Virus record (IMG/VR): IMGVR_UViG_3300020185_000005
Location: 1 to 33,217 of that record
Direction: 5' to 3' (one strand)
DNA length: 33,217 bases
Source of the DNA: a virus
How positions within the stretch are numbered: the first letter of the stretch is position 1; the number at the start of each line of letters is the position of its first letter. The notes beneath the pieces were generated by a model. That model had not been told where the DNA came from. It ran no database searches and worked only from the letters and a program-made list of their open reading frames with translations. Below are positions 2,471 to 21,402 of this stretch, one piece after another. The translations under genes and the position numbers were made by a program.

Positions 2471-2484
2471 CAATTTAACTAATA

Positions 2485-2504
2485 TACCTAGTGGATTCTA
2501 GGTA
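2485..2504 (+). terminator. Hairpin downstream of the tail-fibre stop (TACCTAG-tggatt-CTAGGTA)
   Basis: There is a 7-bp perfect stem with a 6-nt loop 15 nt after the stop at 2470. No U-tract follows, so terminator function is uncertain. Confidence 0.3.
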
Positions 2505-2525
2505 CGGACATAGGAGAAAATAAAA

Positions 2526-2819
2526 ATGGCAATAACAAAAGAAATAGTAGAAGATAAAATAGAAGTTGTAGGAGACTACAAAACTATACAAATAAGAACA
2601 GCTACAGTCATCAAAGAAGATGGTGTAGAGCTTAGTAGGTCTTTTCATAGACACGCATTAGAATGTGTAAGCTCTGTAAAGAACGATGACGATACTTGGA
2701 CTCATACAGATACAGACGTATCAGGAGAGTCTACAGAGGTTCAAGGCATTGCAACAGCAGTGTGGACAGATGAGGTTAAAGAAGCAAAGAAACTTGCTAA
2801 TGAAAGTTCATCATTATAA
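2526..2819 (+). CDS. Hypothetical protein (97 aa)
   Basis: An ATG is preceded by TAGGAG (2511..2516). The protein is acidic and I recognise no motif. Confidence 0.6.
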   Translation: MAITKEIVEDKIEVVGDYKTIQIRTATVIKEDGVELSRSFHRHALECVSSVKNDDDTWTHTDTDVSGESTEVQGIATAVWTDEVKEAKKLANESSSL

Positions 2820-3715: not shown

Positions 3716-4162
3716 ATGAAAGATCTTGTCAAAGAACGGTTAATACAATGGGAAGCATTAGTTTTAAAACCGTACGAATGTTCACAAGGTTATACAACTA
3801 TTGGTGTTGGAAGAAATCTTGAAACAAACGGCATATCAAAAGAAGAAGCTATGTATCTTTTAGATAATGATATAGACAGCGTAATAAAAAAACTAAATAA
3901 ACACTGGCCTTTGTGGTCTACATTTCCAGAAGAAGCTAAAGCTATTATTATGGACTTAGTATTTAATATGGGAATAAACACCTGGCTTTCGTTTCGAAAA
4001 ACCAGGGCTTATATGGAACTTGGAGAATGGGAAAAAGCGGGTAAAGAATTATTAAATTCAAAATATGCACAACAAGTTGGAAGACGTGCAATATTTAATT
4101 CAGAAGAGTTAAAAAAATGCCAACAAAAAGTTCAGACGACCATCAGCGAAACTCAAGAGTAG
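3716..4162 (+). CDS. Endolysin, T4-type lysozyme (GH24)
   Basis: The sequence WEALVLKPYECSQGYTTIGVGRNL aligns with T4 lysozyme [23 protein letters not shown]. The catalytic Glu (E13) and the Thr26 equivalent (T28) are present, and Cys22 occupies the Asp20 position. I chose the ATG at 3716, 2 nt after the holin stop, rather than the track start at 3599, which overlaps the holin. Confidence 0.85.
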   Translation: MKDLVKERLIQWEALVLKPYECSQGYTTIGVGRNLETNGISKEEAMYLLDNDIDSVIKKLNKHWPLWSTFPEEAKAIIMDLVFNMGINTWLSFRKTRAYMELGEWEKAGKELLNSKYAQQVGRRAIFNSEELKKCQQKVQTTISETQE

Positions 4163-4569
4163 GGGCATTTGCTGAATCATTAGTACAGACTTTTTTGCTG
4201 GAATACTGTGATTTCTGTTTTCCTTGTCAAGATAAACATCCAGCAGATTTAGTCTGTGAGCTTGGACCCGCTATGTATACCGTTCAAGTTAAAGCCAGGA
4301 GCAAAACGCCAGAAGGTAAATATGTTTTTGTTTCTGATAATTCTAGAAATCAAAGCGAAATATATAAAAACTATCATTGTGATATTTTAGCTTTTGTATT
4401 TATGCCTGAAAAAAGGATCTTATTTAAAGCTAACTCTAGCTCTCAAACATACTTTACTTTTGATCAGAAAATATTTAACGATAAATTAGAAATAGATTCA
4501 TTTCATGAAACATTAAAAACTTTATCTGAAGTTCCGGTCGTCCGACCGATTATAGATGAGGCTGATTAA
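4117..4569 (+). CDS. PD-(D/E)xK-fold nuclease-like protein
   Basis: The pattern is GAFAESLV...(helix)...HPADLVCEL...YTVQVKA, i.e. D-x(n)-Q/E-x-K, followed by CDILAFVF. This resembles Hjc/PDDEXK_5-like small endonucleases. It overlaps the lysozyme 3' end by 46 nt. Confidence 0.5.
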   Translation: MPTKSSDDHQRNSRVGAFAESLVQTFLLEYCDFCFPCQDKHPADLVCELGPAMYTVQVKARSKTPEGKYVFVSDNSRNQSEIYKNYHCDILAFVFMPEKRILFKANSSSQTYFTFDQKIFNDKLEIDSFHETLKTLSEVPVVRPIIDEAD

Positions 4570-4663: not shown

Positions 4664-4703
4664 ATATAAAAAGGTATACAATTATATATATCCTCGATAT
4701 AAT
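4664..4703 (+). promoter_or_regulatory. Promoter-like cassette, copy 1: ATATAAAAAGGTATAC + 18 nt + TATAAT
   Basis: The 16-nt motif at 4664..4679 is identical to 14229..14244. TATAAT lies at 4698..4703. The conserved leader/RBS TTAAGGAGTTAA at 4723..4734 precedes the ATG at 4740. The cassette sits in a 170-nt intergenic gap at the start of the early gene block. Confidence 0.45.
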
Positions 4704-4739
4704 TTATTTATGTTAAATAAAATTAAGGAGTTAAATAAC

Positions 4740-4952
4740 ATGAGTAAACAAGATTATATAGAAATAGCCGATATTATCAAACGCAATATGAGAGAACAAT
4801 TTGGTTTTGGTAAAGATGTACATGGTGACACAATATATGATATTTCGCACCCTGATAGAAAAAGTATGATAGATCAATTATGTGATTATTTTAAAAAAAA
4901 TAATCCAAGATTTGATGCAGATAAATTTAAACAATATATAAATTCTAAATAG
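4740..4952 (+). CDS. Hypothetical early protein (70 aa)
   Basis: The ATG at 4740 lies 9 nt after AAGGAG. The track start at 4710 would place the RBS inside the ORF. Confidence 0.65.
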   Translation: MSKQDYIEIADIIKRNMREQFGFGKDVHGDTIYDISHPDRKSMIDQLCDYFKKNNPRFDADKFKQYINSK

Positions 4953-7713: not shown

Positions 7714-8334
7714 ATGGATATTTTGGGTATTAACACGAGTGGTGATAATGTTTTTATTAAGCATAGCAGCACAGATAAATGTTGGATGGTAGGAGAAGAG
7801 GCTCATCAAGATATAGTTCATATTCTTATTGATCCGGCTAGTATACAAACTGGCTGGGGTATATACGAAGGTGGTTATAGCTGGGAATGGGATGATAAAC
7901 CGGGTGTTTCTAAAGGACAACCTACTTCTGAACATAAAAGAGCGTTTAGTGTTTGGATGTATACTAAAGAGCAGGGGTCTAAACTATGGCGCAGATTTAG
8001 TTGGGGCGAAAGTCAAGGCTTTAATTCAATGTGCGCAACGTTCTGGAACGATATAAAAGCAAATCCTGGAAAAGTTGTACATATGAAATATACTGGAGCT
8101 AAAGTTGAAAAGTTCAAAGTAGGACAAGCAGCTATACCACAATTTGAATTTGTTAAATGGGCTGATAAGCCTGCGGATTTTGTTACTAATGATGTAGACA
8201 TGCCTTTAGAGCAAGCGGCTACACAAATTAATAATGATTTTAGCTTTGCGATGGAAAATCAAACTCCAGAATCCGGTGATCCTAGATTTGACCCATCAGC
8301 AAAACCTTTAACTGAAGACGATTTACCGTTTTAA
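7714..8334 (+). CDS. Putative ssDNA-binding / annealing protein with an SSB-type acidic C-terminal tip (..LTEDDLPF)
   Basis: An AAAGGAG RBS is present. The last residues, EDDLPF, mimic the bacterial SSB tip DDDIPF and the acidic, Phe-terminated tail of T7 gp2.5. The gene lies between the recombination and replication genes. The fold is not verified. Confidence 0.5.
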   Translation: MDILGINTSGDNVFIKHSSTDKCWMVGEEAHQDIVHILIDPASIQTGWGIYEGGYSWEWDDKPGVSKGQPTSEHKRAFSVWMYTKEQGSKLWRRFSWGESQGFNSMCATFWNDIKANPGKVVHMKYTGAKVEKFKVGQAAIPQFEFVKWADKPADFVTNDVDMPLEQAATQINNDFSFAMENQTPESGDPRFDPSAKPLTEDDLPF

Positions 8335-8336
8335 TC

Positions 8337-10172
8337 ATGAGAGAAGTCAACTTTGTAGAGTTGGCTCCTCGTGTAGGTCTTCATTTATTAGGAAAACCAA
8401 CAAAAGAATCTAGCACGGAATATAGATGGGGCACTAATGGAAGTTGGTGCCTTAATCTAGAAACTGGATTATTTTTTAGTTTTGAATTAGATGAAGGAGG
8501 AGGAGTTATATGGTTAATAGACCACTTTAATCAAAATAGAAATGATATATTAAATATGTACAGTCCAGATATTAATGACATACCAGTAACTAAAACATAT
8601 AAACAATATAATCAAGAACAAATGCGCTCGTTAGCACAAGAAGCTGTTGTTTTACTTAAATACACAGATTCTTTTGTAGTAATGAGGTTTGCAGATAATC
8701 ATTCAATCAAACAAAAGTATGCACCATTTTGTAAACAAGGCGATAATTGGTTTTTAAAACGCCCTGAAGGTTTAATGCCTATATACTATAAAGAAGCCGA
8801 TGGCCCTATAGTTATTAGTGAAGGTGAAAAAGCAACTTTAGGCGCAAATCAATTATACGATGGACCTACAGCAACTTGGCATGGAGGCGTTAATAGTTGG
8901 AAGAAAGCTGACTGGTCACCTGTATATGGTAAAGACATAATTATATGGCCAGACAATGATGAAGCCGGTTTTAAATGTGCAAATGAATTATCAGAGTATT
9001 TAACTGAAAATAAATGCTCTGTACAAATTGCTAAAGTGCCTGAAGCTTTAAATGATAAAGATGATTTATATGATGCATATTATAATAATATTTTTAGCAA
9101 AGAATCTTTTAAAGATTATTTGGATACTGCAGTTTCAAAGCCTAAAAGGCCCTCGCTTGTTTTACGTAAGATATCAGATCTTATTGCTAATATACAAGAG
9201 CCAGAATGGATCATAGAAGACATTATGGAAAAAGATTCAGTAATAGATATCTATGGTGCACCAAAAAGCGGTAAATCATTTGTAGCTATTGATATGGCTT
9301 TATGCTCATCAATGGGTATTCCATGGCAATCACATAAAACAGTTCAAACACCTATTATTTATTTAGCAGGTGAAGGTCAAAGAGGTATAGCAAGACGTGT
9401 ACAAGCATGGGAACATTATTATGGACATGACTTAAACAATGCACAAATGTTTGTATCAGATAGAGGTGTACGGTTTTTAGATGAAAAAGACCATCAAAAC
9501 CTTATTGATCATATAAAACAAGTAGCTGATGAATTTGGTGATATAGGCTGTTTATATGTAGATACGTTAGCTCGTAACTTTGGAGCTGGAAATGAAAATA
9601 GTACTGAAGATATGAATAAATTTATTGAACGAGTGGACCACTTAAAGTCTGAGTTCAGTTGTTGCATATCTTTGATACATCATACAGGGCATAGCAGTTC
9701 AGGACGAGCACGTGGCTCCTCTGTACTTCCTGCTGCTGTTGATGCTGAATTTGCGGTTAAACGGCCTAAAGATGAAGGTGAAGAAATGAAGGTTGAATTT
9801 ACTCAAACATTAATTAAAGACGGCAAGCCGATGAATCCTAAATACTTTAAGTTTAGAGAGATTGATTTAATTAATTATCCTGGTATGACTTCAGGTGTAT
9901 TAGTTAAAACTGAATATGATGAGTTTAAAGAAGAAGATTCTAAGATTGATGAAACTATTATTGCAATAGCAGAAATACAGGCAGAAAGAGCTATAGCTGA
10001 AAATGTTGATCCTATTGCTGTTTGGGTAACGCAAAAAGAAATAATAAATAAACAAACAGATTTGAAAGACAGTACTGTTAAACAACGTGTAAGAAGGTTG
10101 AAAGAAGCTGGTAAGATATATTATGAACAAGGTAAAGGCTATCAAGCTAAAAAGTATGACAATATTGATTAG
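8337..10172 (+). CDS. Bifunctional DNA primase-helicase (Toprim + RepA/AAA_25-like ATPase + C-terminal wHTH-like tail)
   Basis: The Toprim Glu is in VISEGEKA and the DxD is in IWPDNDEAG. Walker A is GAPKSGKS (9255..9278), Walker B is CLYVDTL, and the HHTGHSS sensor is present. The C-terminal ~50 aa (TVKQRVRRLKEAGKIYYEQGKGY) look like a winged helix. Confidence 0.85.
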   Translation: MREVNFVELAPRVGLHLLGKPTKESSTEYRWGTNGSWCLNLETGLFFSFELDEGGGVIWLIDHFNQNRNDILNMYSPDINDIPVTKTYKQYNQEQMRSLAQEAVVLLKYTDSFVVMRFADNHSIKQKYAPFCKQGDNWFLKRPEGLMPIYYKEADGPIVISEGEKATLGANQLYDGPTATWHGGVNSWKKADWSPVYGKDIIIWPDNDEAGFKCANELSEYLTENKCSVQIAKVPEALNDKDDLYDAYYNNIFSKESFKDYLDTAVSKPKRPSLVLRKISDLIANIQEPEWIIEDIMEKDSVIDIYGAPKSGKSFVAIDMALCSSMGIPWQSHKTVQTPIIYLAGEGQRGIARRVQAWEHYYGHDLNNAQMFVSDRGVRFLDEKDHQNLIDHIKQVADEFGDIGCLYVDTLARNFGAGNENSTEDMNKFIERVDHLKSEFSCCISLIHHTGHSSSGRARGSSVLPAAVDAEFAVKRPKDEGEEMKVEFTQTLIKDGKPMNPKYFKFREIDLINYPGMTSGVLVKTEYDEFKEEDSKIDETIIAIAEIQAERAIAENVDPIAVWVTQKEIINKQTDLKDSTVKQRVRRLKEAGKIYYEQGKGYQAKKYDNID

Positions 10173-10336: not shown

Positions 10337-10858
10337 ATGAATTATAAACAAAAGAAAATTAAAGAGTTAGAAGCATTAGAAAAAAATAAAGTTTTTAACG
10401 AATCATTACGAAAGCTTAACGCTATAAAAACAAAAATTAGTCTTGAATGGGGCAATGATCGTATTATGAATTTAATTAGCCCTGAATTACTATTACGATT
10501 TAAAAGAGCTGATACAAAATACTTTCATGAATATCATGCATCATTTAATAAAGTTAAGTTAAACGAAATGATGATTAGAGCGTATGAAGCATTGATACAA
10601 GATGCTACTAATCGTGGTTATAATACATTATCACCAGAATTTATATATACAAAGCATCCAGATACGAATGATAATATTATTATTTGTGTAAATGAAGACG
10701 ATGTACCAATAGCATTTGAAAAGTATAAATCCAAAGAAGATGTTATAATTTTTCATATTAATGAAATACTTATATCAATGACTGCAGATTTTATTGATAT
10801 AAAAAAGAAAACACACAAGATTGGAGGCAGAATAAAAAGTTATGTTAATGTCAGTTAA
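10337..10858 (+). CDS. Hypothetical protein (173 aa)
   Basis: This is a track ORF. The start codon abuts the last iteron. I recognise no motif. Confidence 0.6.
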   Translation: MNYKQKKIKELEALEKNKVFNESLRKLNAIKTKISLEWGNDRIMNLISPELLLRFKRADTKYFHEYHASFNKVKLNEMMIRAYEALIQDATNRGYNTLSPEFIYTKHPDTNDNIIICVNEDDVPIAFEKYKSKEDVIIFHINEILISMTADFIDIKKKTHKIGGRIKSYVNVS

Positions 10859-11432
10859 AAGTAATATCAAGCCATTTGTTAAGCAACTTAAAAAGTTTCA
10901 AAATGTTGATATCCCGAATATAACAAGAATTGCTTTAAATGAAACAGCTATTAGAGTTAAAGAGCTCGAACAAGTACAAATGCGTAAATCATTTGATAGA
11001 CCTAAACCACAAACAATAAAAAGTATTTATGTTCAATTCGCTAAAAAGAATTATCCTATAGCGCGTATAACATTTAGAGACTGGGCACAAGAGTTTATAC
11101 ATAGAAATATTGTTGGAGGTATCAGAAGAGTTAACAATACAGCAGTACCTACAGTTAATGCACGATTAAATCAATTTGGTAATATACCAGGAAGAAAACA
11201 AGGTGTTGTAAAAGGTAAACAATTTAGAGCAACAATCGATGGCATATATGGTGTATGGGAACGTAATAAGAATGGATTAAAGATTATACATAGGTTTGAG
11301 ACCAATCCAAGATACGATGCTATATTTCCTTTCTATCGTGTTGCTAATAAAGCAGTTAAATATGTAATGCCATTAAAGTTTGAAAAGGTTGCTAAATATT
11401 ATATTAAGAAAGCGGGATATCAGATTAAATGA
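10842..11432 (+). CDS. Hypothetical basic protein (196 aa)
   Basis: This is a track ORF. There is only a faint resemblance in layout to lambda gpZ-like proteins, which is not enough for a call. Confidence 0.55.
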   Translation: MLMSVKSNIKPFVKQLKKFQNVDIPNITRIALNETAIRVKELEQVQMRKSFDRPKPQTIKSIYVQFAKKNYPIARITFRDWAQEFIHRNIVGGIRRVNNTAVPTVNARLNQFGNIPGRKQGVVKGKQFRATIDGIYGVWERNKNGLKIIHRFETNPRYDAIFPFYRVANKAVKYVMPLKFEKVAKYYIKKAGYQIK

Positions 11433-11957: not shown

Positions 11958-12470
11958 ATGGCTACAAGAAAAGAAGTTGCTGAACATTTATTCATGTCGG
12001 TTCAAAACGTTGGTAAATTAGTAGAAAAAGGCGTATTTAAGCCTAAACCAGGCCCTAATCCGCTAGATTTAGACCATTGCAGGCAATCATATATAGAAGA
12101 GCTACAACAAAAGGCTAGATATACGTTAAAAGATGGAACAGGAGATATAACAGAAGAAAAAACTAAACTAACTGCAGCGCAAGCTAAGAAAGCACAGTTA
12201 GATGTTGCTGTAATTGAAGGAAAGCTAATACCAACGGATCAAGTTGAATCTACATGGATTAACTATGCTTCAAACTGCAGAGGCAAACTTTTAACAATAC
12301 CAAACAAGGTTAGTCATTTAGTTTTAGCAAGTGATGATTTTAACGAAGTAGAAAAGATAATTAAAGATTCAATTTATGAGGCATTAGAGGAATTAGCAAA
12401 TGACCCAATACCAAGAGAATATAGAGAAAATACTCTTATCGACAAAGAAGACCTGGACACCACCGCCTAA
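11958..12470 (+). CDS. Terminase small subunit, lambda Nu1-like
   Basis: The N-terminal HTH TRKEVAEHLFMSVQNVGKLVEKGV is followed by a central LTAAQAKKAQLDVAVIEGKLIP segment, as in Nu1-family proteins. It lies directly upstream of, and overlaps, terL. Confidence 0.7.
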   Translation: MATRKEVAEHLFMSVQNVGKLVEKGVFKPKPGPNPLDLDHCRQSYIEELQQKARYTLKDGTGDITEEKTKLTAAQAKKAQLDVAVIEGKLIPTDQVESTWINYASNCRGKLLTIPNKVSHLVLASDDFNEVEKIIKDSIYEALEELANDPIPREYRENTLIDKEDLDTTA

Positions 12471-14226
12471 TCTAACTGTTTCAGAATGGGCTGATCAGTA
12501 CAGAACGCTATCACCAGAATCTTCTGCTGAAGCTGGCATGTGGAAAACATCGAGAGCTCCATATCAAAAAGGTATTATGGATGCCGTTAATGATCCAAAG
12601 ATTCATACTATTGTTTTTATGAAAAGTGCACAAGTTGGCGCAACTGAAATATTAAACAATATAGTTGCTTATTATATTGACCAGGACCCAAGCCCATGCT
12701 TAGTATTACAACCAACTTTACAAATGGCTCAAGCTTGGAGTAAAGACAGATTAGCTAATATGATTCGTGATTGTGATCGTTTACGAGCAAAAGTAAAAGA
12801 TCCAAGAAGTAAAGATAGTTCTAATACAGTTTTATCAAAACAATTTCCTGGAGGCAATATTAATATTGTTGGGTCTAATTCTGCTGCTGGTCTCGCTTCA
12901 AGACCAATTAGAATTTTGCTTTGTGATGAAATTGACCGTTATGATCCAAGTGCAGGTGCTGAAGGTGACCCTATTAACTTAGCAATTAAACGTACAACAA
13001 CATTTTGGAACAGAAAAATATTTATTACTTCTACCCCAACTATAAAAGGTTTATCAAGAATAGAAGTTGCTTTTGAAGAATCAGATCAACGTTATTACGA
13101 AGTGCCATGTCCAGAATGTAATAAGTATCAAGTTCTTGAATGGGAACAAATTCATTGGGAATCAAAAAAACCAGAAACAGCAGAATATACTTGTAAGCAT
13201 TGTGAAGTGGTAATACCTGAAACTAAAAAAATGTGGATGCTTTCACAAGGTAAATGGGTAGCTACGCAAGAAACAAAAAAAACAGCAGGCTTTCATATAT
13301 CAGAATTATATTCACCCTGGAGATCATGGAAAGATATGGCTGTTGATTTTTATGCTGTTAAGAGTCAACCTGAAATGTTAAAGACCTGGGTAAATACTGC
13401 ATTAGGCAAAACGTTTGATGATCCAGGAGAAAGTATTGAATATAGCTCATTGATGAATCAAAGAGAAGAATATGATTATACAAATATTCCTAATAATGTT
13501 TTATTAATTACAGCAGGGATTGATGTACAAGGCGATAGATTAGAAGCGCAAGTAATTGGCTGGGGCCAAAATAATGAAGCATGGGTTTTAGATTATCGAG
13601 TATTCTTTGGCGATCCATCAAGTAATTTGGTTTGGAAAGACTTAGACAATTATTTAGGCATGACATTTAAACGCGAAGATGAAAAAATTTTAAAAATAGC
13701 TTGTTCTTGTGTTGACTCAGGAGGTCATCATACACAACAGGTTTATGCTTTTACTTCTAAAAGAGTCCATAGAAAAGTATTTGCTATTAAAGGTCAGTCA
13801 CAAAGTAATAAGCCGGTTGCCGGTCGCCCGTCATATATTGGTAGATCACGACATATTTTATATCCAGTTGGGGCTGATACTGCTAAAGAAGCAATATATA
13901 CAAGATTAAAGTCTGAAACTAAAACAATACACTTCCCAGCAACAGTTGATGAAGAGTACTTTAGGCAGCTAACATCTGAAAAAAGAGTAATTAAATACTC
14001 TAAAGGCGCTAAGAAGTTTGAATGGGTTAAAAAAACTACAAGAAATGAAGCATTAGATACATTTGTTTATGGATTAGCTGCTTTATATATACTTCAGCCA
14101 AATTATAACCGCCTAGAGCAATTAATTAACAAAAATCAATCTACACAAGCAGAACATACAAAAAACGTTAAAAAAAGCTCATTTAGAGCTAATCATAGAC
14201 CAAATTGGGTAAATAATTGGAAATAA
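12400..14226 (+). CDS. Terminase large subunit, lambda gpA family
   Basis: The sequence VSEWADQYRTLSPESSAEAGMWKTSRAPYQKGIMDA and the Walker A-like FMKSAQVGATE and Walker B ILLCDEIDRY match the gpA family layout. The 608-aa size also fits. AGAGGA lies upstream of the ATG at 12400. Confidence 0.9.
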   Translation: MTQYQENIEKILLSTKKTWTPPPNLTVSEWADQYRTLSPESSAEAGMWKTSRAPYQKGIMDAVNDPKIHTIVFMKSAQVGATEILNNIVAYYIDQDPSPCLVLQPTLQMAQAWSKDRLANMIRDCDRLRAKVKDPRSKDSSNTVLSKQFPGGNINIVGSNSAAGLASRPIRILLCDEIDRYDPSAGAEGDPINLAIKRTTTFWNRKIFITSTPTIKGLSRIEVAFEESDQRYYEVPCPECNKYQVLEWEQIHWESKKPETAEYTCKHCEVVIPETKKMWMLSQGKWVATQETKKTAGFHISELYSPWRSWKDMAVDFYAVKSQPEMLKTWVNTALGKTFDDPGESIEYSSLMNQREEYDYTNIPNNVLLITAGIDVQGDRLEAQVIGWGQNNEAWVLDYRVFFGDPSSNLVWKDLDNYLGMTFKREDEKILKIACSCVDSGGHHTQQVYAFTSKRVHRKVFAIKGQSQSNKPVAGRPSYIGRSRHILYPVGADTAKEAIYTRLKSETKTIHFPATVDEEYFRQLTSEKRVIKYSKGAKKFEWVKKTTRNEALDTFVYGLAALYILQPNYNRLEQLINKNQSTQAEHTKNVKKSSFRANHRPNWVNNWK

Positions 14227-14228
14227 TT

Positions 14229-14267
14229 ATATAAAAAGGTATACTTTTATATATGATTTGGTATAAT
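14229..14267 (+). promoter_or_regulatory. Promoter-like cassette, copy 2: ATATAAAAAGGTATAC + 17 nt + TGgTATAAT
   Basis: The 16-nt motif at 14229..14244 is identical to 4664..4679. An extended -10, TGGTATAAT, ends at 14267. The leader TTAAGGAGTTAA at 14292..14303 precedes the ATG at 14306. Confidence 0.5.
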
Positions 14268-14305
14268 TATACTATAAACAAACAACATAATTTAAGGAGT
14301 TAATT

Positions 14306-14560
14306 ATGAACCAAGAAGAAAGAAACGAATTACTAAAAAAAATTGAAAACATATCAGAATCTGTATGTCAAGTTATAAAAATGCTTGATAAGAATCTTGT
14401 TGAAGCACTTGATTATGGTACCGACGAAGAATCAACTATAATTTATCGCTTTCAAAAAGAACTTATAAATGACGCTGGTTTTTATGGCAAAGAAGCAAAC
14501 ATTGCAATTCAATATTTAACTGGCAGATTAACAGCTAACGACTTTACAAAAGCTGCTTAA
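14306..14560 (+). CDS. Hypothetical protein (84 aa), first gene of the nucleotide island
   Basis: This is a track ORF with a strong AAGGAG RBS. I recognise no motif. Confidence 0.6.
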   Translation: MNQEERNELLKKIENISESVCQVIKMLDKNLVEALDYGTDEESTIIYRFQKELINDAGFYGKEANIAIQYLTGRLTANDFTKAA

Positions 14561-14961
14561 TGCTAGGCGATATTAAAAAATTAAACCGGTATTATAAAAT
14601 ATACCGGTTTATTAACAAAGCAGATAATGAAGATAAAATGTCTTACTTACAATTTAGGGCTAATTTTATACAAGAAGAGTTAAACGAATTATTTACAGCA
14701 ATTGATAATCAAGAATCAGATGAAGTTGTTGATGCTTTCATTGATATTATTGTAATTGCATTAGGATCATTAGATGCATTTAATGTTGATATTAAAAAAG
14801 CGTGGAAACGTGTGCATCACGCTAATATGAAAAAAGAAATAGGAATTAAAGACAGCAGGCCAAATCCACTAGGGTTACCTGATCTTGTTAAACCAAAAGA
14901 TTGGCAAGCCCCGCAACATTTTGATAATGTTGGTAAATTAGATTTTTTAGATAAGGAGTAA
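14560..14961 (+). CDS. MazG-like all-alpha nucleoside triphosphate pyrophosphohydrolase
   Basis: The metal-binding motif EExxE...ExxD is seen as IQEELNEL ... DEVVDAFIDIIVIALG, followed by HHANMKK. The start is TAATG-coupled. Confidence 0.75.
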   Translation: MLGDIKKLNRYYKIYRFINKADNEDKMSYLQFRANFIQEELNELFTAIDNQESDEVVDAFIDIIVIALGSLDAFNVDIKKAWKRVHHANMKKEIGIKDSRPNPLGLPDLVKPKDWQAPQHFDNVGKLDFLDKE

Positions 14962-14963
14962 CT

Positions 14964-15227
14964 ATGCATTCAGTATTAAGCGAAGCAGCAGCTTTACAAA
15001 CACAAAAAGCCGAAGATTATAATTCAAATGATTCAGAGGCTAAACAAGAATACTTTCCGTACGGGCATCATTCGTATTTACAAATGATTTCAACAAAAGT
15101 AAAACGTTTAGAATCAATTGCATTCAATGAAAAAAATCCTAACTTTGAATCGGCTTACGATTCGGTATTAGATTTAATTAACTATGCAAGTTTTTATGGA
15201 GCTTATTTAAAAAAACATGGAAAATGA
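14964..15227 (+). CDS. Small helical protein, DUF1599-like pattern
   Basis: The pattern KAEDYNS ... STKVKRLESI ... ESAYDSVLDLINYASFYGAYL matches my recollection of DUF1599 (K..DY, K..R, DS..DliNYa.f). That family is often found next to phage nucleotide-metabolism genes. An HMM check is needed. Confidence 0.45.
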   Translation: MHSVLSEAAALQTQKAEDYNSNDSEAKQEYFPYGHHSYLQMISTKVKRLESIAFNEKNPNFESAYDSVLDLINYASFYGAYLKKHGK

Positions 15228-16011
15228 AAAACAATATTTTGCTTTAGTTAACAAAGTATTAACTGAAGGCATAAAAAGAAACCAAGAAAGAACAGGCGTA
15301 GGTACTTTAGGTATATTTGGGGCTAATCTTGAATTAAACTTAAAAGCTGGTTTTCCTTTATTTACACATCGTAAAATATTTTATAAAGGTGTAATTGGTG
15401 AGCTTATTGCTTTTTTACGCGGTCATACAAATGTAAATGACTTTAAAACACTGGGTTGTAATTACTGGGATGCTTGGGCCGAAGAAGATGGTAACTTAGG
15501 CCCTGTATATGGATCTCAATGGCGTAATTATTCTGGTTTACAAATTGATCAGTTAAAAAATGTTATCCAAGAAGCTAAGGTTAACCCAGAGTCAAGAAGA
15601 TTGTATGTAACTGCATGGAATCCAATTGATGCACATAAAATGGCATTACTACCTTGTTTTCACGGCTTTCAATTGTTTATTCATAATAATTATTTAAGTT
15701 TACTAGTCAATATGCGCTCATCTGATGTAATGGTAGGACTTCCCTCAGATATATTGTTCCACTCATTATTAATGTTAGTTTTGTCTAATGAATTAGATAT
15801 AACTCCTCATAAACTAATATTTAATTTAGGTGATGCGCATATCTATAATAATCATTTACAATTTGCAAAAACTGTACATGAATTACAAATATTTAATCCG
15901 CCACAAGTACGATTATATTACGAAGCAGGTATTGATAATTTATATCCTAATGATTTTATTATTTCAAGCTACAAACATAATGCAGCAAAACAATTAAAAG
16001 TTAATGTCTAA
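15217..16011 (+). CDS. Thymidylate-synthase-family (ThyA-fold) enzyme with Asp at the Asn177 specificity position; predicted dCMP methylase or hydroxymethylase
   Basis: The protein aligns by hand along its full length with E. coli ThyA. Conserved elements are RTGVGT, IGELIAFL (Glu58), YWDAW, SRR, catalytic Cys in LLPCF (C147, 15655..15657), MRSSD and GDAHIY. However, PFN(177) is replaced by PSD (D178, GAT at 15748..15750). Confidence 0.9.
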   Translation: MENEKQYFALVNKVLTEGIKRNQERTGVGTLGIFGANLELNLKAGFPLFTHRKIFYKGVIGELIAFLRGHTNVNDFKTLGCNYWDAWAEEDGNLGPVYGSQWRNYSGLQIDQLKNVIQEAKVNPESRRLYVTAWNPIDAHKMALLPCFHGFQLFIHNNYLSLLVNMRSSDVMVGLPSDILFHSLLMLVLSNELDITPHKLIFNLGDAHIYNNHLQFAKTVHELQIFNPPQVRLYYEAGIDNLYPNDFIISSYKHNAAKQLKVNV

Positions 16012-16468
16012 TTATTCTCATTCTTGGAATTTAAAATATTTAACACTTGCAAAAAAATTTGCTAGTTGGTCTAAAGATCCATCAGTTCAAGTAGGAGCAG
16101 TAGCTATTGGTAATAAAGGCCAAGTATTATCCCAAGGTTATAATGGCTTTCCTAGAGACTTTAATGATGCACAAACAATTTATAAAAACTCTGAACAAAA
16201 AAAGAATTATATTATTCATGCTGAAATGAATTGTATTTATCATGCAACTTTAAATGGTATTTCTTTAGAAAGAGCAACATTATTTGTTTATGGTTTAGAC
16301 ATATGTCATGAATGTGCTAAAGGTATAATTCAAGTTGGAATAAAAGAAGTAGTTACTTATTCTCCAGACAAGCCTAAAGAAAAATGGATTAGTAGTTTTA
16401 AAATATCACAAGAATTATTTAAACAAAGCGGAATAAATCATATAAAAATAGACCAAAATAAATTTTAA
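16004..16468 (+). CDS. dCMP deaminase (cytidine/deoxycytidylate deaminase fold)
   Basis: The zinc motifs HAEMN and C-H-E-C are present. The N-terminal KDPSVQVGAVAIGNKGQVLSQGYNGFP is typical of ComEB/dCMP deaminases. Confidence 0.85.
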   Translation: MSNYSHSWNLKYLTLAKKFASWSKDPSVQVGAVAIGNKGQVLSQGYNGFPRDFNDAQTIYKNSEQKKNYIIHAEMNCIYHATLNGISLERATLFVYGLDICHECAKGIIQVGIKEVVTYSPDKPKEKWISSFKISQELFKQSGINHIKIDQNKF

Positions 16469-16475
16469 GTATAAT

Positions 16476-16506
16476 GTAACAAATCTTTATAAATACTTGT
16501 TATAAT
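16476..16506 (+). promoter_or_regulatory. Candidate sigma70-type promoter with an extended -10 (TGTTATAAT)
   Basis: TATAAT lies at 16501..16506 with TG at 16498..16499. A weak -35-like TGTAACA lies about 17 nt upstream. The site is in the 62-nt gap before the gpW-like and portal genes. Confidence 0.35.
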
Positions 16507-16530: not shown

Positions 16531-17112
16531 ATGGCCAATAAATTCGACAGCACATATTACCCAACATCAGAGCCTAATGAATTACAGCTCGGTGATTTTT
16601 GGGCATGGAAAAAAACTGATCTCTCAGACGATTACCCTACTGCATCTTATAGTTTATCTTATGAATTTAATTTGGTTGATGGTTCAACAGCTGCTAATTT
16701 TACATTAACTGCTACAGAATCTAATGATGAATATATTATTGAAACAAGTAGCACAACATCATATACAGCTGGAGAATATAATTGGGTTTCTTATATTACT
16801 CGATCAAGCGACTCAGCAAGAATTAAATTATCAGAAGGCTTTACTGAAATACAACAAAATTATGCTACTACAACAAGTTCTGTAAGAAGCCATGTAAAAA
16901 AAGTTTTAGATGCAATAGAAGCAGTTATTGAAAATCGAGCAACTATGGACCAATCGTCTATGAGTATTGCTGGCAGATCATTATCAAGGCTAACTGTTGA
17001 TGAGTTAATGACATTTAGAGATCGATATAAAACAGAATATTTAAAAGAAGTTAAACAGGCTAGAATTAAAAATAAAAAAGATTCCGGTAATTTAATCAAA
17101 GTGAGGTTTTAA
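16531..17112 (+). CDS. Head-completion protein with a gpW-like C-terminal domain and an extra N-terminal domain
   Basis: The C-terminal ~70 aa (LDAIEAVIENRATMDQSSMSIAGRSLSRLTVDELMTFRDRYKTEY...GNLIKVRF) follow the lambda gpW pattern: A..al..G......v...Gr.v.....eL, ending hydrophobic-x-hydrophobic. The gene lies immediately before the portal, as W lies before B in lambda. Confidence 0.45.
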   Translation: MANKFDSTYYPTSEPNELQLGDFWAWKKTDLSDDYPTASYSLSYEFNLVDGSTAANFTLTATESNDEYIIETSSTTSYTAGEYNWVSYITRSSDSARIKLSEGFTEIQQNYATTTSSVRSHVKKVLDAIEAVIENRATMDQSSMSIAGRSLSRLTVDELMTFRDRYKTEYLKEVKQARIKNKKDSGNLIKVRF

Positions 17113-17114
17113 AT

Positions 17115-18626
17115 ATGGCCTGGTATGATCGATTCGTAAATAATAATAAAAAAACAAAAAAAGTTTCAAAAGTAAGAAGATATGCCGGTGCTAATACAGG
17201 CAGATTATTTGCAGATTTTACAGCATCAAGTACATCAGCAGACGCTGAAATTAAAGATCAATTAAGAATATTAAGAGAAAGAAGCCGTGATTTAGCTAGA
17301 AATGATTCATATGTAACTCGATACTTAAATTTAATGGTTAGCAATATTATTGGAGCTAACGGTATTAGATTAAGTGTTAAAGCACGTGATTCACAAGGTA
17401 ATTTAGATATTCTTGGCAACCAAACAATTGAGCGCGAGTTTAAGCAGTGGTCAAAAATGGGCAACTGTACATTGAATGGCCGTCAATCATTTTTAGATTG
17501 CCAAAAGTTATTTGTTGAAGCATTAATGAGAGATGGCGAAGTTTTAGTAAGGCATGCAACACCAACAGATTCAAAATATAAATATAAACTTCAATTTTTA
17601 GAAGCTGATCATTTAGATGAAACTAAAAATGATTTTAATCCTGAAACTAAAAATAGAATTAAAATGGGTGTAGAAGTTGATAAACATGACAAGCCCGTAG
17701 CATATTATTTATTTAAAAATCACCCATATGATAATACGTATCAATCACCTAAAGAGCATATAAGAGTACCAGCTGAAGAAATCATTCATGCATATATGCC
17801 AACACGTCCTGAGCAAACCAGGGGCGTACCTATGACTGCTTCAGCTATGCCTCAGATAAAAATGCTTAATGGTTATATGGAAGCTGAAATAACGGCCGCA
17901 CGTGTTTCAGCTGCAAAAATGGGATTCTTTACTTCGCCGGATGGTGATGGTTATGTTGGTGAAGATTTAGAAGATAGCTTTACTCCAATTATGGAAGCAT
18001 CTGCAGGCAGCTTTGAACAACTTCCCGCTGGAATGGATTTTAAAAGCTTTGACCCTGATCATCCAAGTACAGCATTTGGCCCATTTACAACACAAGTTTT
18101 AAGAGGTATTGCCTCTGGTTTAAATATTTCATATCATGCTTTAACAAATGATTTAAGTTCTGTTAATTATAGTTCTTTGCGAGCAGGTGCATTAGAAGAC
18201 AGAGAAATGTATAAGCTATATCAACGCTTTGTTGTAGATCATTTTATGAGGCCGGTATTCGAAAAGTGGTTAGAAATGTCTATATCAAGTGGCGCTATTA
18301 TTATGGATCCTGATGTAAATATTCCTTTACCGATGTCAAAATATGAAAAATTTGCTGCAGATACAATATTCATTGGACGTTCTTTCCAATGGGTTGATCC
18401 TCAAAAAGAAATGAATGCATCAATAAGTGGTATGCAAGCTGGCCTTGTTACTTATCAAGATGTACAATCAAATTATGGTAGAGACGTTGAAGAGCTATAT
18501 GAACAACACGAAAGAGAACAAAAGTTAGCTGAACAATATGGAATTAAAACAGCATTCCAGCCATTCGGTATAAAGCTTCCAATTGAACCTGTAATTAAAG
18601 GAGGCTCAGATGGCGATTCCGAATAA
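17115..18626 (+). CDS. Portal protein, lambda family
   Basis: The N-terminal RRYAGANTGRLFADFTASSTSADAEIKDQLRILRERSRDLARNDSYVTRYLNLMVSNIIGANGIRL is the hallmark of lambda gpB-type portals. The 503-aa size and the position after terL/gpW also fit. Confidence 0.9.
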   Translation: MAWYDRFVNNNKKTKKVSKVRRYAGANTGRLFADFTASSTSADAEIKDQLRILRERSRDLARNDSYVTRYLNLMVSNIIGANGIRLSVKARDSQGNLDILGNQTIEREFKQWSKMGNCTLNGRQSFLDCQKLFVEALMRDGEVLVRHATPTDSKYKYKLQFLEADHLDETKNDFNPETKNRIKMGVEVDKHDKPVAYYLFKNHPYDNTYQSPKEHIRVPAEEIIHAYMPTRPEQTRGVPMTASAMPQIKMLNGYMEAEITAARVSAAKMGFFTSPDGDGYVGEDLEDSFTPIMEASAGSFEQLPAGMDFKSFDPDHPSTAFGPFTTQVLRGIASGLNISYHALTNDLSSVNYSSLRAGALEDREMYKLYQRFVVDHFMRPVFEKWLEMSISSGAIIMDPDVNIPLPMSKYEKFAADTIFIGRSFQWVDPQKEMNASISGMQAGLVTYQDVQSNYGRDVEELYEQHEREQKLAEQYGIKTAFQPFGIKLPIEPVIKGGSDGDSE

Positions 18627-21402
18627 AGGCATGAAAGCAGAAGCTGAAAAAGGTTTAGCTTGGAGAAAAGAATTTGGAAGAGGAGGTACGCGTATTGGTG
18701 TAACTCGCGCTAATCAAATTAAAAACGGCGTTGATTTATCTGAGTCAACTATTAAAAGAATGTACAGTTATTTTTCAAGACATGAAGTTGATAAAAAAGC
18801 CGAAGGGTTTAGACCTGGCGAAGATGGATTTCCAAGTAATGGCAGGATTGCGTGGGCGCTTTGGGGAGGAGATCCAGGTTATACATGGTCAAAAAAATTA
18901 GTTGAGCAAATGAAAAAAGAAGATGAGCGTAAATTAGAAATGCGCCCATACCCTAATGAACATGCAGCTCGTATAGAAGACCCTGAACAATTTGATAACT
19001 TTAGAAGAAAAAATAATGAGTTTAAAACTGGCATACATGCTATACATGGTATAAAAGGCAATGAAAGATTAATACAAAGCATTAGATTTGATTCTGATAT
19101 GTTTACTCCAGACGAAGCAAAAGCTTGGTTAGAAAGAAATGAGTTTGAATATATTAAATTTGAAAATGCAATTGAAGAAAGAGCTGTTTCAGAAAAAACA
19201 GAAGAAGCATTAAAAAATAAATTAAAAGAACATCATGAAGAAGTAGGCGATACAAAAAGTAAACGAACAACGCTTGCTATTTTAAAACAAATTTATGAAC
19301 ACGGGATTGGAGCCTTTAATACAAATCCAGGCTCAGTTAGGCCTCAGGTTAGCAATGCTAATCAGTGGGCAATGGCTCGTGTAAACAGTTTTCTATTTGC
19401 TTTGCGCAATGGAAAATATAGAAGTGGGAAGCACGATACTGATCTGCTACCTAAATCACACCCTTTATCATCGAAAGAGGAAAAAGCTATGAAAGATAAA
19501 GAAGATAGACATATCCTCAACGTAAATGAAACAGATGATTCTGTAATCATTGAGTTTTCAAAGCACCATGAGGATAAAGCAGAAGAAGAAAATGTTGACG
19601 CAGTTTCTTCTTATCAAGAAGATGAAGACGAAAGAAAAGTTGTTGATTTACCATTAAGGTATAGAACAATTGATCTTTCTAAAAATTCATTCATTGATGA
19701 AGAAAAAAGATTAGTTCGTATTGGTGTTTCTTCGGAAGAACCAGTTGAGCGATCATTTGGTATGGAAGTTCTAAGCCATGCTGAAGATGATGTAGATATG
19801 GAATTTGTATCATCAGGTAGAGCTCCGTTTTTATTAGACCATGACATGTCTAAACAAATTGGAGTTATAGAAGAATTTAAACTTGACGAGGCGGCTAAGA
19901 GGACAATAGCTGTTGTTAGATTTGGTAGATCAGCACTAGCTCAAGAAGTTTTTCAAGATGTAGTTGACGGTATTCGTATGAATATAAGTGTTGGCTATAA
20001 AGTAAATAAACTTGCAAGAGTTAAAGATAACGATGAGATGCTTTATAAAGCGTCATGGACTCCACTTGAAGTATCAAGTGTATCTGTGCCGGCTGATCAA
20101 AGCAGACTAGTTGGAGTTGGACGCTCTGCAAAAATTAATAAGGATATTATTATGACTGAAGAAAAAAAAGATATTAATCTTGACGAAATCAGAAATAAAA
20201 CTCTTGAAGAAGCTAAAGCTGAATACAAAAGAAACTCGAAAGAGATTATTGATTTAGCTGTTAAGCATAACAAAAGAGATTTAGCTGATAGCGCAATTAA
20301 AGATGGTCTTACTGTTGAAGAATTCAGAGGCGCATTATTAAATGAAATATGCAATGATAAGCCGCTTGAAACTGCTGAAATTGGTATGACTCAAAATGAA
20401 GTGAGAGAATTCTCATTAGTAAAAGCAATTAATGCTTTAGCAAATCCAACTGATAGAAGAGCTCAAGAAGCTGCTGCTTTTGAATTTGAATGTTCAAATC
20501 AAGCTGCTAGAGAACAAGGAAAAACAGCTCAAGGAATTATGATTCCTGCTGATGTACTTGGCAACTGGAGCAAAAGAGATATTAACTCATCAGATGATTC
20601 ATCTTTAATCCCTCAAGATTATAGAGCTGGCGATTTTATTGATGTATTAAGAAACTCATCAAGTGTTATGCAAGCCGGCGCGACTATGCTTAGAGGACTC
20701 TCTGGCTCCGTCGTTATACCGAAGAAAACAGCTGCTTCATCAGCTGCTTGGATTGCAACTGAAGGTAATGCTGCTTCTGAAAGCGAATTTACTTCTGGTA
20801 GCGTTACTATGTCTCCTAAAGTAATTGGTGCGTTTACAGATGCAACTAGATTGCTTTTACAACAAAGCTCATTAGATGTTGAGAACTTAATCAGAGACGA
20901 CCTAACACAATCTATAGCTACTGCTATTGATTTAGGTGCTTTAGCTGGTTCTGGTTCTTCAGGACAGCCTACAGGTATTGCTAGTACTTCAGGTATTAAC
21001 ACTACTACTTTTGCTGCTGCAAGCCCAACATATGCTGAAATTATTGCTATGGAATCTGCAGTTGCTGCTGATAATGCATTAGTTGGAAACTTAGCATATA
21101 TATGTAAGCCATCTGATTATGGTACATTAAAAACAACTTCAAAAGATAGCGGAAGCGGCCAATTTGTTGTTGAGCCAGATGGAAACATGAATGGCTATAA
21201 TGTTATCAGATCAAATCAAGTAACTGCAGGAGATTTTTACTTTGGTAATTTCTCTGATTTACTTATTGGTATGTATGGCGGACTTGATATAACAGTGGAC
21301 CCATATGCTCTTAGCACATCAGGTGGAGTAAGAATTATTGCTCTTCAAACTTTAGATGTTGCTGTGCGTCATGCGGTATCTTTCTGTAAGTCAAGCGACT
21401 AA
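18610..21402 (+). CDS. Polyprotein: N-terminal accessory domains + HK97-family prohead protease + scaffold-like coiled coil + HK97-fold major capsid protein
   Basis: A GGAGG RBS is present. Residues ~345-500 (EEPVERSFGMEVL...APFLLDHDMSKQIGVIEEF...GIRMNISVGYKV) fit the S78/U35 prohead protease. Residues 515-~640 form a charged coiled coil. Residues ~640-930 (DYRAGDFIDVLRNSSSVMQAGATM...SESEFTSGSVTMSPKVIGAFTDATRLLLQQS...AIDLGALAGSG) fit the HK97 capsid family. Confidence 0.85.
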   Translation: MAIPNKGMKAEAEKGLAWRKEFGRGGTRIGVTRANQIKNGVDLSESTIKRMYSYFSRHEVDKKAEGFRPGEDGFPSNGRIAWALWGGDPGYTWSKKLVEQMKKEDERKLEMRPYPNEHAARIEDPEQFDNFRRKNNEFKTGIHAIHGIKGNERLIQSIRFDSDMFTPDEAKAWLERNEFEYIKFENAIEERAVSEKTEEALKNKLKEHHEEVGDTKSKRTTLAILKQIYEHGIGAFNTNPGSVRPQVSNANQWAMARVNSFLFALRNGKYRSGKHDTDLLPKSHPLSSKEEKAMKDKEDRHILNVNETDDSVIIEFSKHHEDKAEEENVDAVSSYQEDEDERKVVDLPLRYRTIDLSKNSFIDEEKRLVRIGVSSEEPVERSFGMEVLSHAEDDVDMEFVSSGRAPFLLDHDMSKQIGVIEEFKLDEAAKRTIAVVRFGRSALAQEVFQDVVDGIRMNISVGYKVNKLARVKDNDEMLYKASWTPLEVSSVSVPADQSRLVGVGRSAKINKDIIMTEEKKDINLDEIRNKTLEEAKAEYKRNSKEIIDLAVKHNKRDLADSAIKDGLTVEEFRGALLNEICNDKPLETAEIGMTQNEVREFSLVKAINALANPTDRRAQEAAAFEFECSNQAAREQGKTAQGIMIPADVLGNWSKRDINSSDDSSLIPQDYRAGDFIDVLRNSSSVMQAGATMLRGLSGSVVIPKKTAASSAAWIATEGNAASESEFTSGSVTMSPKVIGAFTDATRLLLQQSSLDVENLIRDDLTQSIATAIDLGALAGSGSSGQPTGIASTSGINTTTFAAASPTYAEIIAMESAVAADNALVGNLAYICKPSDYGTLKTTSKDSGSGQFVVEPDGNMNGYNVIRSNQVTAGDFYFGNFSDLLIGMYGGLDITVDPYALSTSGGVRIIALQTLDVAVRHAVSFCKSSD

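Follow-up and report, generated by a model that had tools for sequence, protein, structure and literature searches.

Why does a phage genome carry a set of genes for nucleotide metabolism between its packaging and head genes, and which product would these genes make? This question is raised by the IMG/VR record IMGVR_UViG_3300020185_000005, which was analysed over its whole length of 33,217 nucleotides (nt) and is called the window here (all positions refer to it). Five open reading frames (ORFs) on the + strand span positions 14306-16468, between the terminase gene terL and a head-tail joining gene, and code for an 84-amino-acid (aa) protein, a MazG-like protein, a DUF1599-like protein, a ThyA-like enzyme with the thymidylate synthase (TS) fold and a deaminase. 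An earlier note on this DNA had placed these five genes between terL and the gpW/portal region and had proposed them as a module for the modification of deoxycytidine (dC). Our analysis confirms that all five are present, on the + strand and at the coordinates given below, and the family labels MazG-like, DUF1599-like, ThyA-like and deaminase hold in Pfam and PHROG profile matches. We consider it fairly likely, from the sequences, that the cassette encodes a pre-replicative pathway of the Xp12 type, in which dC is replaced by 5-methyl-dC, and that it is transcribed together with the early genes from a duplicated promoter. The change of Asn177 to Asp in the TS-fold enzyme, together with a co-varying change at position 147, points to such a dC-modification module on the logic of T4 and Xp12, as had been proposed, and not to a plain booster of the dTTP supply.

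Active-site residues of the TS-fold enzyme

The TS-fold enzyme (264 aa; 15217..16011, + strand; PF00303, 3e-74) is a predicted dCMP C5-methyltransferase. HMMER alignment to solved TS and MAFFT alignments place Asp at the position of Asn177 of E. coli TS, Phe at that of His147 and Ser at that of Phe176, and the motif GLPSDILF of the window enzyme aligns with GLPFNIAS. Kept are Arg21, Glu58, Trp80, Trp83, Tyr94, Arg126/127, Cys146 and Gln151 as well as Arg166, Ser167, Asp169, Asp205, His207 and Tyr209. Phe147 and Asp177 are present in each of the 19 closest relatives in the database (93% to 43% identity), and Ser176 in all but one, while nearly all of the next approximately 100 database matches, which are ordinary TS, have His147, Phe176 and Asn177.

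It has been reported that the exchange N177D turns TS from dUMP to dCMP, yielding 5-methyl-dCMP, and that no residues are linked more strongly to cytosine-modified phage contigs than 177 and 147 (PMC8670742). The earlier note had allowed for the case that the ThyA-like enzyme is an ordinary dTMP synthase. However, Asp177, Phe147 and Ser176 speak otherwise, and judged by these residues the enzyme is not one. The predicted reaction is dCMP + methylene-tetrahydrofolate to 5-methyl-dCMP + dihydrofolate (DHF). Signatures published for the hydroxymethylases are an Asp three residues before the catalytic Cys, a Ser or Thr before the catalytic Tyr, Val in place of Trp83 and the loss of the C-terminal tail (PMC6400193). 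The window enzyme has none of the four (Leu143, Val93, Trp83 and a full C-terminal tail are present), and its predicted product is therefore 5-methyl-dCMP rather than 5-hydroxymethyl-dCMP.

Its best matches in the PDB are TS (about 1e-55), and it is 42% identical to E. coli ThyA, 30% to the Xp12 TS homolog and 26% to gp42 of T4. It falls below all NCBIfam PRK01827 equivalog cut-offs (best 246 vs 327). A TS tree, which is a rough neighbour-joining (NJ) tree without bootstrap, has three separate Asp177 lineages, namely the window clade beside canonical ThyA, the Xp12/PaMx74 type with Pro147/Tyr176, and the gp42 type.

Pyrophosphohydrolase and deaminase of the cassette

The MazG-like protein (133 aa; 14560..14961, + strand; PF01503, 4e-11; phrog_671, 6e-22) belongs to the PRA-PH family of all-alpha NTP pyrophosphohydrolases and is predicted to convert dCTP (possibly dUTP) to the corresponding dNMP and pyrophosphate (PPi). 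Acidic residues E39, E40, E43, D58 and D62 are invariant, and among PDB entries DR2231, also a MazG-like pyrophosphohydrolase, matches best (8e-10). The 87-aa protein which follows (14964..15227, + strand) matches phrog_18404 (4e-16) and, weakly and below the gathering score, DUF1599 (0.0047), the 'nucleotide modification associated domain 1' (NMAD1). PF07659 is matched weakly in 9 of 11 relatives. The phrog_18404 profile has 264 positions and spans the MazG ORF as well.

Among 50,697 GenBank phage records the 87-aa ORF has 51 matches, mostly in Xp12 and PaMx74 and the Bosavirus and Pamexvirus group, with Pelagibacter phage Kolga in addition. Phages Xp12 and PaMx74 have DNA with 5-methylcytosine (5mC) in place of cytosine, and in phages of their group the match falls under a gene annotated as pyrophosphohydrolase. 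In the Xp12/PaMx74 hydrolase, the N-terminal half is matched by the MazG-like ORF at 37-40% identity and the C-terminal half by the 87-aa ORF at 38-41%, so that the two ORFs are a split version of one enzyme. The 87-aa protein, which had been left as an unassigned orphan, is thus the split-off C-terminal DUF1599 domain of the fused pyrophosphohydrolase, and it is a probable partner subunit of the MazG-like protein.

A relation of the MazG-like protein to the dCTPase gp56 of T4, assumed in the earlier note, could not be detected: hhalign gives a probability of 0.4%, and gp56 belongs to PF08761 (dUTPase_2), the window protein to PF01503. Both families are members of the all-alpha NTP pyrophosphatase superfamily. 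Nor was DUF1599 recognizable as a degenerate MazG-like domain in an hhalign comparison of the two profiles (4%), and it has no sequence match in the PDB. An AlphaFold2 (AF2) model of the DUF1599 protein (pLDDT 73.6, four helices) has no significant Foldseek match (best E 0.73); four all-alpha NTP pyrophosphatases are among the weak matches, which were not used as evidence.

The last gene of the cassette codes for a deoxycytidylate-type deaminase of the cytidine deaminase (CDA) fold with the motif HAE...CxxC (154 aa; 16004..16468, + strand; PF00383, 4e-18). It is 37% identical to the deaminase of PaMx74 (E 1e-27) and 28% to that of Xp12 (E 4e-18), and its best PDB match is 7FH4 (6e-25). The same structure, described as a PBCV-1 bifunctional dCMP/dCTP deaminase, is the best structural match of mSCD-B5, which is selective for 5-methyl-dCTP (5mdCTP), deaminating it far better than dCTP and having no action on dCMP; such deaminases have been proposed to make dTTP from 5-methyl-dCTP (bioRxiv 10.1101/2024.12.05.627091). 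Formation of dTTP from 5-methyl-dCTP is also attributed to Xp12 (Wang & Ehrlich 1982, as cited in PMC12088426). By analogy, the window deaminase probably converts 5-methyl-dC nucleotides to dT nucleotides, rather than dCMP to dUMP. The earlier note had assigned to it the supply of dUMP for dTMP synthesis by the host, a role that the deaminases of the characterised homologous systems do not have.

Insertion of the cassette and exchange of its alleles

The locus was compared with 55 IMG/VR loci with a TerL relative and two loci from Logan assemblies (L063 and L064). Fifty-two loci extend more than 1.2 kb past terL. In 51 of them (TerL 72-99% identical) the MazG-like gene and the rest of the cassette occupy the same slot, and the single cassette-free locus has a TerL of only 32% identity. 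The same arrangement is found in L063, a more distant phage (TS 58% identical). The nearest cultured phages, Roseobacter phages CRP-821 and CRP-811 (TerL 52% identical, 30-33 kb), have no cassette; there terS, terL, a 195-aa homolog of the 193-aa head-tail joining protein of the window (38%, E 7e-42), the portal gene and a capsid fusion gene are contiguous.

This comparison bears out that the genes form an island with respect to phages with a contiguous terL-gpW-portal order. Going by gene order and identities, the cassette is an insertion into the basic head module of the family, old and fixed in this sub-lineage. Its earlier description as mobile and moron-like stands in so far as its internal content is exchanged and the CRP phages lack the island, but it is fixed in all 51 relatives and there is no anomaly in GC content at third codon positions (GC3). 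GC3 is 0.17-0.20 in the cassette, like in the neighbouring genes, and 0.10 in the deaminase; the overall GC content of the cassette is 29.7% vs 33.4% for the genome. A recent horizontal acquisition, considered on composition, is not supported, GC3 being like that of the rest of the genome.

Two kinds of TS-fold enzyme occupy the slot. The ThyA-like Asp177 enzyme is present in 33 loci, and 18 loci have a 212-219-aa gp42-like enzyme which matches T4 dCMP hydroxymethylase (E 6e-60) and has all the hydroxymethylase signatures (e.g. L036, L031, L028). The gp42-like type continues either with a class-I S-adenosylmethionine (SAM) methyltransferase or with three to four genes including one for a pyridoxal phosphate (PLP)-dependent enzyme. 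This hydroxymethylase allele is found in phages whose TerL is 95% (L011) and 91% (L024) identical to that of the window, and the MazG-like genes beside it are up to 91% identical to that of the window. The deaminase is 56-99% identical to that of the window in methylase-type loci vs 53-69% in hydroxymethylase-type loci. Since deaminase identity tracks the TS type, the TS-fold enzyme and the deaminase are exchanged as a unit on a shared scaffold, and the presence of a gp42-like hydroxymethylase in the same slot of sibling phages marks the locus as one for cytosine C5 modification.

Predicted pathway and alternatives

An exact 127-nt direct repeat at the window ends (1-127 = 33091-33217) indicates a complete circular (or terminally overlapping) assembly with a genome of 33,090 bp, and the absence of a gene is therefore valid for the whole genome. 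Family searches of all ORFs found no DNA polymerase, dNMP kinase, dihydrofolate reductase (DHFR), glycosyltransferase or DNA methyltransferase, and Walker A motifs are confined to the primase-helicase and a chance occurrence in the capsid protein. The lack of a kinase and a glycosyltransferase, pointed out in the earlier note, is thus upheld: no ORF of the complete genome has a family match, and there is no other P-loop. However, the glycosyltransferase need not be counted as a missing piece, because the predicted product is 5mC and not 5-hydroxymethylcytosine (5hmC).

In the pathway that we propose, the MazG-like protein (probably assisted by the DUF1599 protein of 87 aa) would hydrolyse dCTP to dCMP and PPi, which drains the competitor and supplies the substrate. 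The TS-fold enzyme, judging from its residues, would bind dCMP and methylate it reductively at C5 with methylene-tetrahydrofolate. The resulting 5-methyl-dCMP would be raised to 5-methyl-dCTP by host kinases, which are invoked because no phage kinase is encoded; this is the weakest step. Incorporation would be left to the host replisome, which the phage primase-helicase presumably recruits. If the deaminase acts like that of Xp12 and like mSCD-B5, it would convert some of the 5-methyl-dC nucleotides to dT nucleotides, providing thymidylate for an AT-rich phage (33% GC) without a dUMP-dependent TS. The 84-aa ORF would stand outside the pathway as an exchangeable accessory gene. We infer every enzymatic step of this scheme from sequence. 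A neighbourhood of TS(D177), PF00383 deaminase and PRA-PH is typical of cytosine-modified metavirome contigs, and five of seven such TS homologs made 5-methyl-dC (5mdC) in vivo (bioRxiv 10.1101/2024.12.05.627091).

Several points weigh against this pathway. One of the main weaknesses lies in Ser176 and Phe147, which make the predicted methylase activity less certain; in E. coli TS, Phe176 contacts the para-aminobenzoic acid (PABA) ring of the folate, and the window enzyme has Ser in its place. The enzyme is not an ortholog of the proven Xp12 dCMP methyltransferase (30% identity, separate NJ branch), so that its activity is extrapolated from residues, and it scores above the TIGR03284 thymidylate synthase cut-off (209.6 vs 108.35). 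Two of the seven D177 TS tested yielded no 5mdC, and the published in-vivo assay co-expressed the T4 gp1 kinase to obtain 5mdC in DNA (bioRxiv 10.1101/2024.12.05.627091), while no dNMP kinase is encoded here. Unlike Xp12 and PaMx74, the genome has no DHFR, from which a DHF-producing methylase would benefit (PMC6400193). Finally, siblings of the hydroxymethylase type have a homologous deaminase with 53-69% identity, and a common T4-like role in converting dCMP to dUMP is thus a possibility.

Of the other explanations, the one that survives best is a thymidylate bypass, in which dCMP is converted by way of 5-methyl-dCMP to dTMP, at the mono- or triphosphate level, with little or no 5mC in the DNA. 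The cassette would then serve mainly to turn surplus dC into the dT required by an AT-rich phage. The same two enzyme families yield dTMP in either order, there is no phage kinase, the genome has 33% GC, and a 'new thymidylate biosynthesis' via 5-methyl-dC nucleotides is documented for Xp12 (in references given in PMC12088426). However, in Xp12 this route coexists with complete substitution by 5mC, and the contigs with D177-TS and deaminase came from the cytosine-modified DNA fraction (PMC8670742; bioRxiv 10.1101/2024.12.05.627091). The characterised deaminase acts only on the triphosphate, which a polymerase would use too, and a pyrophosphohydrolase which drains dCTP would be needless for a mere bypass. 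We therefore regard this explanation as unlikely.

The analogy with T4 would imply a dCMP hydroxymethylase and DNA with 5hmC. Asp177 is common to T4 gp42 and the window enzyme, the absence of DHFR fits an enzyme that regenerates tetrahydrofolate, the exchanges Phe176Ser and His147Phe could change the cofactor geometry, and sibling phages use a hydroxymethylase in the same slot. Against this stand the lack of every published signature (Leu and not Asp three residues before the Cys, Val93, Trp83, full C-terminal tail), the much closer likeness to E. coli ThyA (42%) than to gp42 (26%), with TS as best PDB matches, and the fact that no glycosyl- or other transferase follows the window enzyme. A hydroxymethylase is, on this evidence, quite improbable.

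Least of all do we favour a conventional nucleotide supply, as read in PMC12629253, with a dTMP synthase fed by dCMP deaminase and MazG as a house-cleaning dUTPase: the label in Pfam, PHROG and TIGR03284 is thymidylate synthase, DR2231, the closest solved relative of the MazG-like protein, is described as dUTP-hydrolysing (Goncalves et al. 2011, as cited), and the published annotation of the phage family treats the genes as auxiliary metabolic genes (AMGs; PMC12629253), but Asn177, the dUMP-specificity determinant, is Asp and His147 is Phe throughout the clade, the enzyme does not reach any of the PRK01827 equivalog cut-offs, homologs of the DUF1599 partner come mostly from 5mC phages and the slot alternates with a gp42-like dCMP hydroxymethylase, which makes this reading very improbable.

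Promoter cassette and boundaries of the island

The gpA-type terL (12400-14226, + strand), which forms the upstream flank, is followed by a 79-nt spacer with a 26-nt near-palindrome, then a TGGTATAAT box and then an AAGGAG leader. The near-palindrome, centred on GTATAC (14229..14254, + strand), opens the promoter cassette and may serve as an operator or in promoter recognition. Its sequence, ATATAAAAAGGTATACwwTTATATAT, occurs in the genome only at 4664-4689 and 14229-14254, with 0 copies expected. The extended -10-like box TGGTATAAT (14259..14267, + strand), whose promoter function is suggested by its sequence, contains TATAAT at 14262-14267, 7 nt past the palindrome; the position of TATAAT is kept in relatives, and TG is kept less. 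A conserved leader (14268..14305, + strand) with the Shine-Dalgarno (SD) sequence AAGGAG (14293-14298) precedes the first ORF.

The second copy of the promoter cassette (4664..4703, + strand; palindrome 4664-4689, TATAAT 4698-4703) heads the early/replication block. Both palindrome copies are followed by TATAAT 7-8 nt downstream and then by a conserved leader with AAGGAG. L008, L017 and L033 have, behind terL, the leader variant that precedes the first early ORF of the window (4704-4742). In relatives the promoter cassette is kept after terL even where the first downstream ORF is a different one. By itself, the motif TGNTATAAT shows no enrichment in the window (3 copies vs 4.9 expected), and neither does a generic scan for sigma-70-like promoter sites. 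The case for a promoter is therefore built on the duplication and conservation of the cassette and not on consensus counts. At the level of sequence, the early-type promoter cassette that had been ascribed to the island is real, being duplicated at 4664 and conserved in relatives. A copy of it heads the early block, which suggests that the nucleotide genes are expressed together with the early genes despite their position among late genes.

Directly behind the promoter lies the 84-aa ORF (14306..14560, + strand), the accessory occupant of a hypervariable slot. It has no match in Pfam or PHROG and in NCBIfam a sub-threshold chance match only, and its single-sequence AF2 model is helical (pLDDT 65). 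The ORF is present in 11 related loci only, and unrelated small ORFs take its place elsewhere, so that it is an accessory, exchangeable and dispensable gene. It had been suggested that the 84-aa protein might supply a step of the pathway, but a gene absent from most relatives is not part of the core. Equivalents of the slot are seen at 5845-6009 in L028, 2389-2565 in L031 and 2324-2744 (minus strand) in L040, and there the promoter and leader are conserved.

The five ORFs are closely spaced, with a one-base TAATG overlap at 14560, a 2-nt gap (14962-14963), an 11-nt overlap (15217-15227) and an 8-nt overlap (16004-16011). The tight coupling described earlier at 14560, 15217 and 16004 is confirmed for all three overlaps, but the TAATG form applies at 14560 alone.

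At the downstream end, a second conserved extended -10-like box (TGTTATAAT; TATAAT box TTGTTATAATCGG) is located at 16498..16506 (+ strand), 25 nt ahead of the head-tail joining gene, and recurs in nearly all relatives, also where the cassette is of another allele. The head-tail joining gene has no SD sequence (…ATATTTTTAATTTATG). The box may drive transcription of the structural genes, with a short leader that lacks an SD sequence, and form the downstream boundary of the island. No convincing intrinsic terminators were found at either end of the island.

The gene at this boundary (16531-17112, + strand) codes for a 193-aa 'head-tail joining' protein that matches phrog_5774 and has no Pfam match. 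It had been called gpW-like, which is correct for its position but not for its family. It is followed by the lambda-family portal gene (17115-18626, + strand), the downstream flank.

Other forms of the locus in related phages

Siblings with the SAM-type cassette (6681-8473 in L028 and 3303-5083 in L031; also L011, L024, L026, L030, L032, L033 and L048) have the order gp42-like hydroxymethylase, deaminase and a 245-255-aa class-I SAM-dependent methyltransferase (PF13489, 5e-15). Such a cassette may direct a 5hmC-derived modification involving methylation.

A third form is present at 3244-8454 in L036, at 3272-7527 in L040 and in L045, and partially in L035 and L037. Past the hydroxymethylase and the deaminase it has a 320/328-aa phrog_13881 protein, a 295-aa protein without family (not in L040), a 283/291-aa PLP-dependent enzyme (phrog_7093 'threonine dehydratase', weak PF00291) and a 368/385-aa protein without family. 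In L035-L037 and L045, and not in L040, the DUF1599 gene is swapped for one coding for a dATP/dGTP diphosphohydrolase N-terminal domain protein (PF18909). From its gene content, the third form is a candidate for a new cytosine hypermodification pathway.

The alleles are thus the ThyA-like dCMP methylase, the gp42-like enzyme with a class-I SAM methyltransferase, and the gp42-like enzyme joined by a PLP-dependent enzyme and by two or three proteins without a known family. We propose, tentatively and with more doubt than confidence, that cytosine-modification genes are hot-swapped between terL and the head-tail joining gene, where a promoter and a dCTP-pyrophosphohydrolase scaffold are shared and these three alleles exchange the C5 chemistry among nearly identical phages. 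Some of the alleles would then specify undescribed hypermodifications, and the window allele would work with four phage proteins together with host kinase and polymerase.

CRP-821 (L069; 1102-1419, 1907-2710 and 7224-8983) codes for two DNA cytosine methyltransferases, for a protein with a dATP/dGTP diphosphohydrolase domain and for a protein of the phosphoadenosine phosphosulfate (PAPS)-reductase family, and the phage family may use alternative routes to modified DNA. In Pelagibacter phage Kolga (L003, 4983-6637), the DUF1599 protein gp36 is accompanied by the TS homolog gp35, which has Asp177 but His147/Phe176, and by the MazG-like gp34 (45% identical to that of the window); no deaminase is found among the annotated or compared genes of this stretch. 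Judging from these genes, Kolga, a cultured SAR11 phage, may also modify its cytosines. A TS of the Phe147/Ser176/Asp177 clade is present in the replication module of the T7-like podovirus L061 (and in L062), which has RNA polymerase, DNA polymerase A and ribonucleotide reductase (RNR). The relevant stretches in L061 are 3839-4276, 8001-8804 and 16009-16377, where a PF00383 deaminase is located 4 kb from the TS and a dGTP_diPhyd_N protein is present instead of the PRA-PH type.

Organization of the genome

Every gene of the 33,090-bp genome is on the + strand. The gene sequence begins with tail fibre, holin, endolysin, small early ORFs, RecE-like exonuclease, RusA, primase-helicase, terS and terL; after terL come the five cassette ORFs, the 193-aa protein, the lambda-family portal, a protease-capsid fusion and the tail genes. 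A search of GenBank phages by DNA found no close relative.

The fusion is a single ORF of 930 aa (18610-21402) in which a phrog_2859 domain at the N terminus is joined to a region like a prohead protease and to the major capsid protein; a fusion of this kind is annotated as major capsid protein in the CRP phages. A 196-aa ORF (10842-11432) between primase-helicase and terS, away from the tail genes, matches the 'minor tail protein' phrog_1924 (1e-31). The tail-fibre gene spans the assembly junction and holds repeats at 31870-31953 and 32753-33073, namely five overlapping matches in a run with a 12-nt period, and three to four copies of a 78-87-nt unit.

Implications

If the proposed pathway is correct, widespread and abundant marine siphoviruses package DNA with 5mC for cytosine, and their siblings DNA with 5hmC derivatives. 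The low-GC 'CRP-822-type' subgroups have predicted hosts such as SAR86 and SAR11 (PMC12629253). The 'auxiliary metabolic genes' of the family would then have to be re-read from nucleotide supply to anti-restriction DNA chemistry, with a bearing on the recovery of such phages by modified-base-sensitive library preparations and on the defence systems usable by their hosts. The family would offer a natural allelic series for the exchange of modification pathways, and the window would illustrate how little a phage must encode for this purpose, since kinase, polymerase and DHFR are all absent. The family also supplies putative dCMP methylases of the TS fold and deaminases for 5mC, in a lineage separate from that of Xp12, which are possibly useful as enzymes, and the sibling phages point to possibly new cytosine hypermodifications.

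Comparison with known systems

The type of module described here is already known from the biochemistry of Xp12 (1976-1982), from the genomes of Xp12 and PaMx74 and from the MetaGPA and mSCD work. Peculiar to the window, by comparison of sequences, are the split hydrolase, the independent Asp177 TS lineage, the minimal gene set, the location among the packaging genes behind a duplicated early promoter and the allelic exchange with hydroxymethylase cassettes.

The gene order of Xp12 and PaMx74 is hydrolase, TS homolog, deaminase and DHFR. Shared with the window are PRA-PH and DUF1599, followed by an Asp177 TS homolog and then by a PF00383 deaminase, and the predicted chemistry is the same. However, the pyrophosphohydrolase is fused in these phages and divided into two ORFs in the window, and the TS homolog has Pro147/Tyr176 there and Phe147/Ser176 in the window, at 30% identity. 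The window is also without DHFR and phage DNA polymerase, in a 33-kb genome compared with one of about 60 kb, and its cassette is situated between terL and the portal gene under a copy of the early promoter, whereas that of Xp12 and PaMx74 is in the replication module.

The neighbourhoods of TS(D177) and dCMP deaminase, with or without PRA-PH, described from metaviromes (bioRxiv 10.1101/2024.12.05.627091; MetaGPA, PMC8670742) match the neighbourhood in the window exactly. With mSCD-B5 the window deaminase shares 7FH4 as the best solved relative, the likeness to mSCD-B5 being one by published description and not by sequence. The 5hmC pathway of T4 (gp56, gp42, gp1, Cd and glucosyltransferases) follows the same logic of draining dCTP, modifying dCMP at C5 with a TS-fold enzyme and using a CDA-fold deaminase. 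In contrast to T4, the window TS is without the gp42 signatures, the pyrophosphohydrolase is of the PRA-PH type and not of the dUTPase_2 type, and kinase and glycosyltransferase are absent; a gp42-like enzyme is found in the siblings (L036, L028). The Roseobacter phages CRP-821 and CRP-811 of the 'CRP-822-type' family (PMC12629253) resemble the window in architecture, size, portal and protease-capsid fusion. They differ in having no cassette, and CRP-821 has DNA cytosine methyltransferases, of which the window genome has none.

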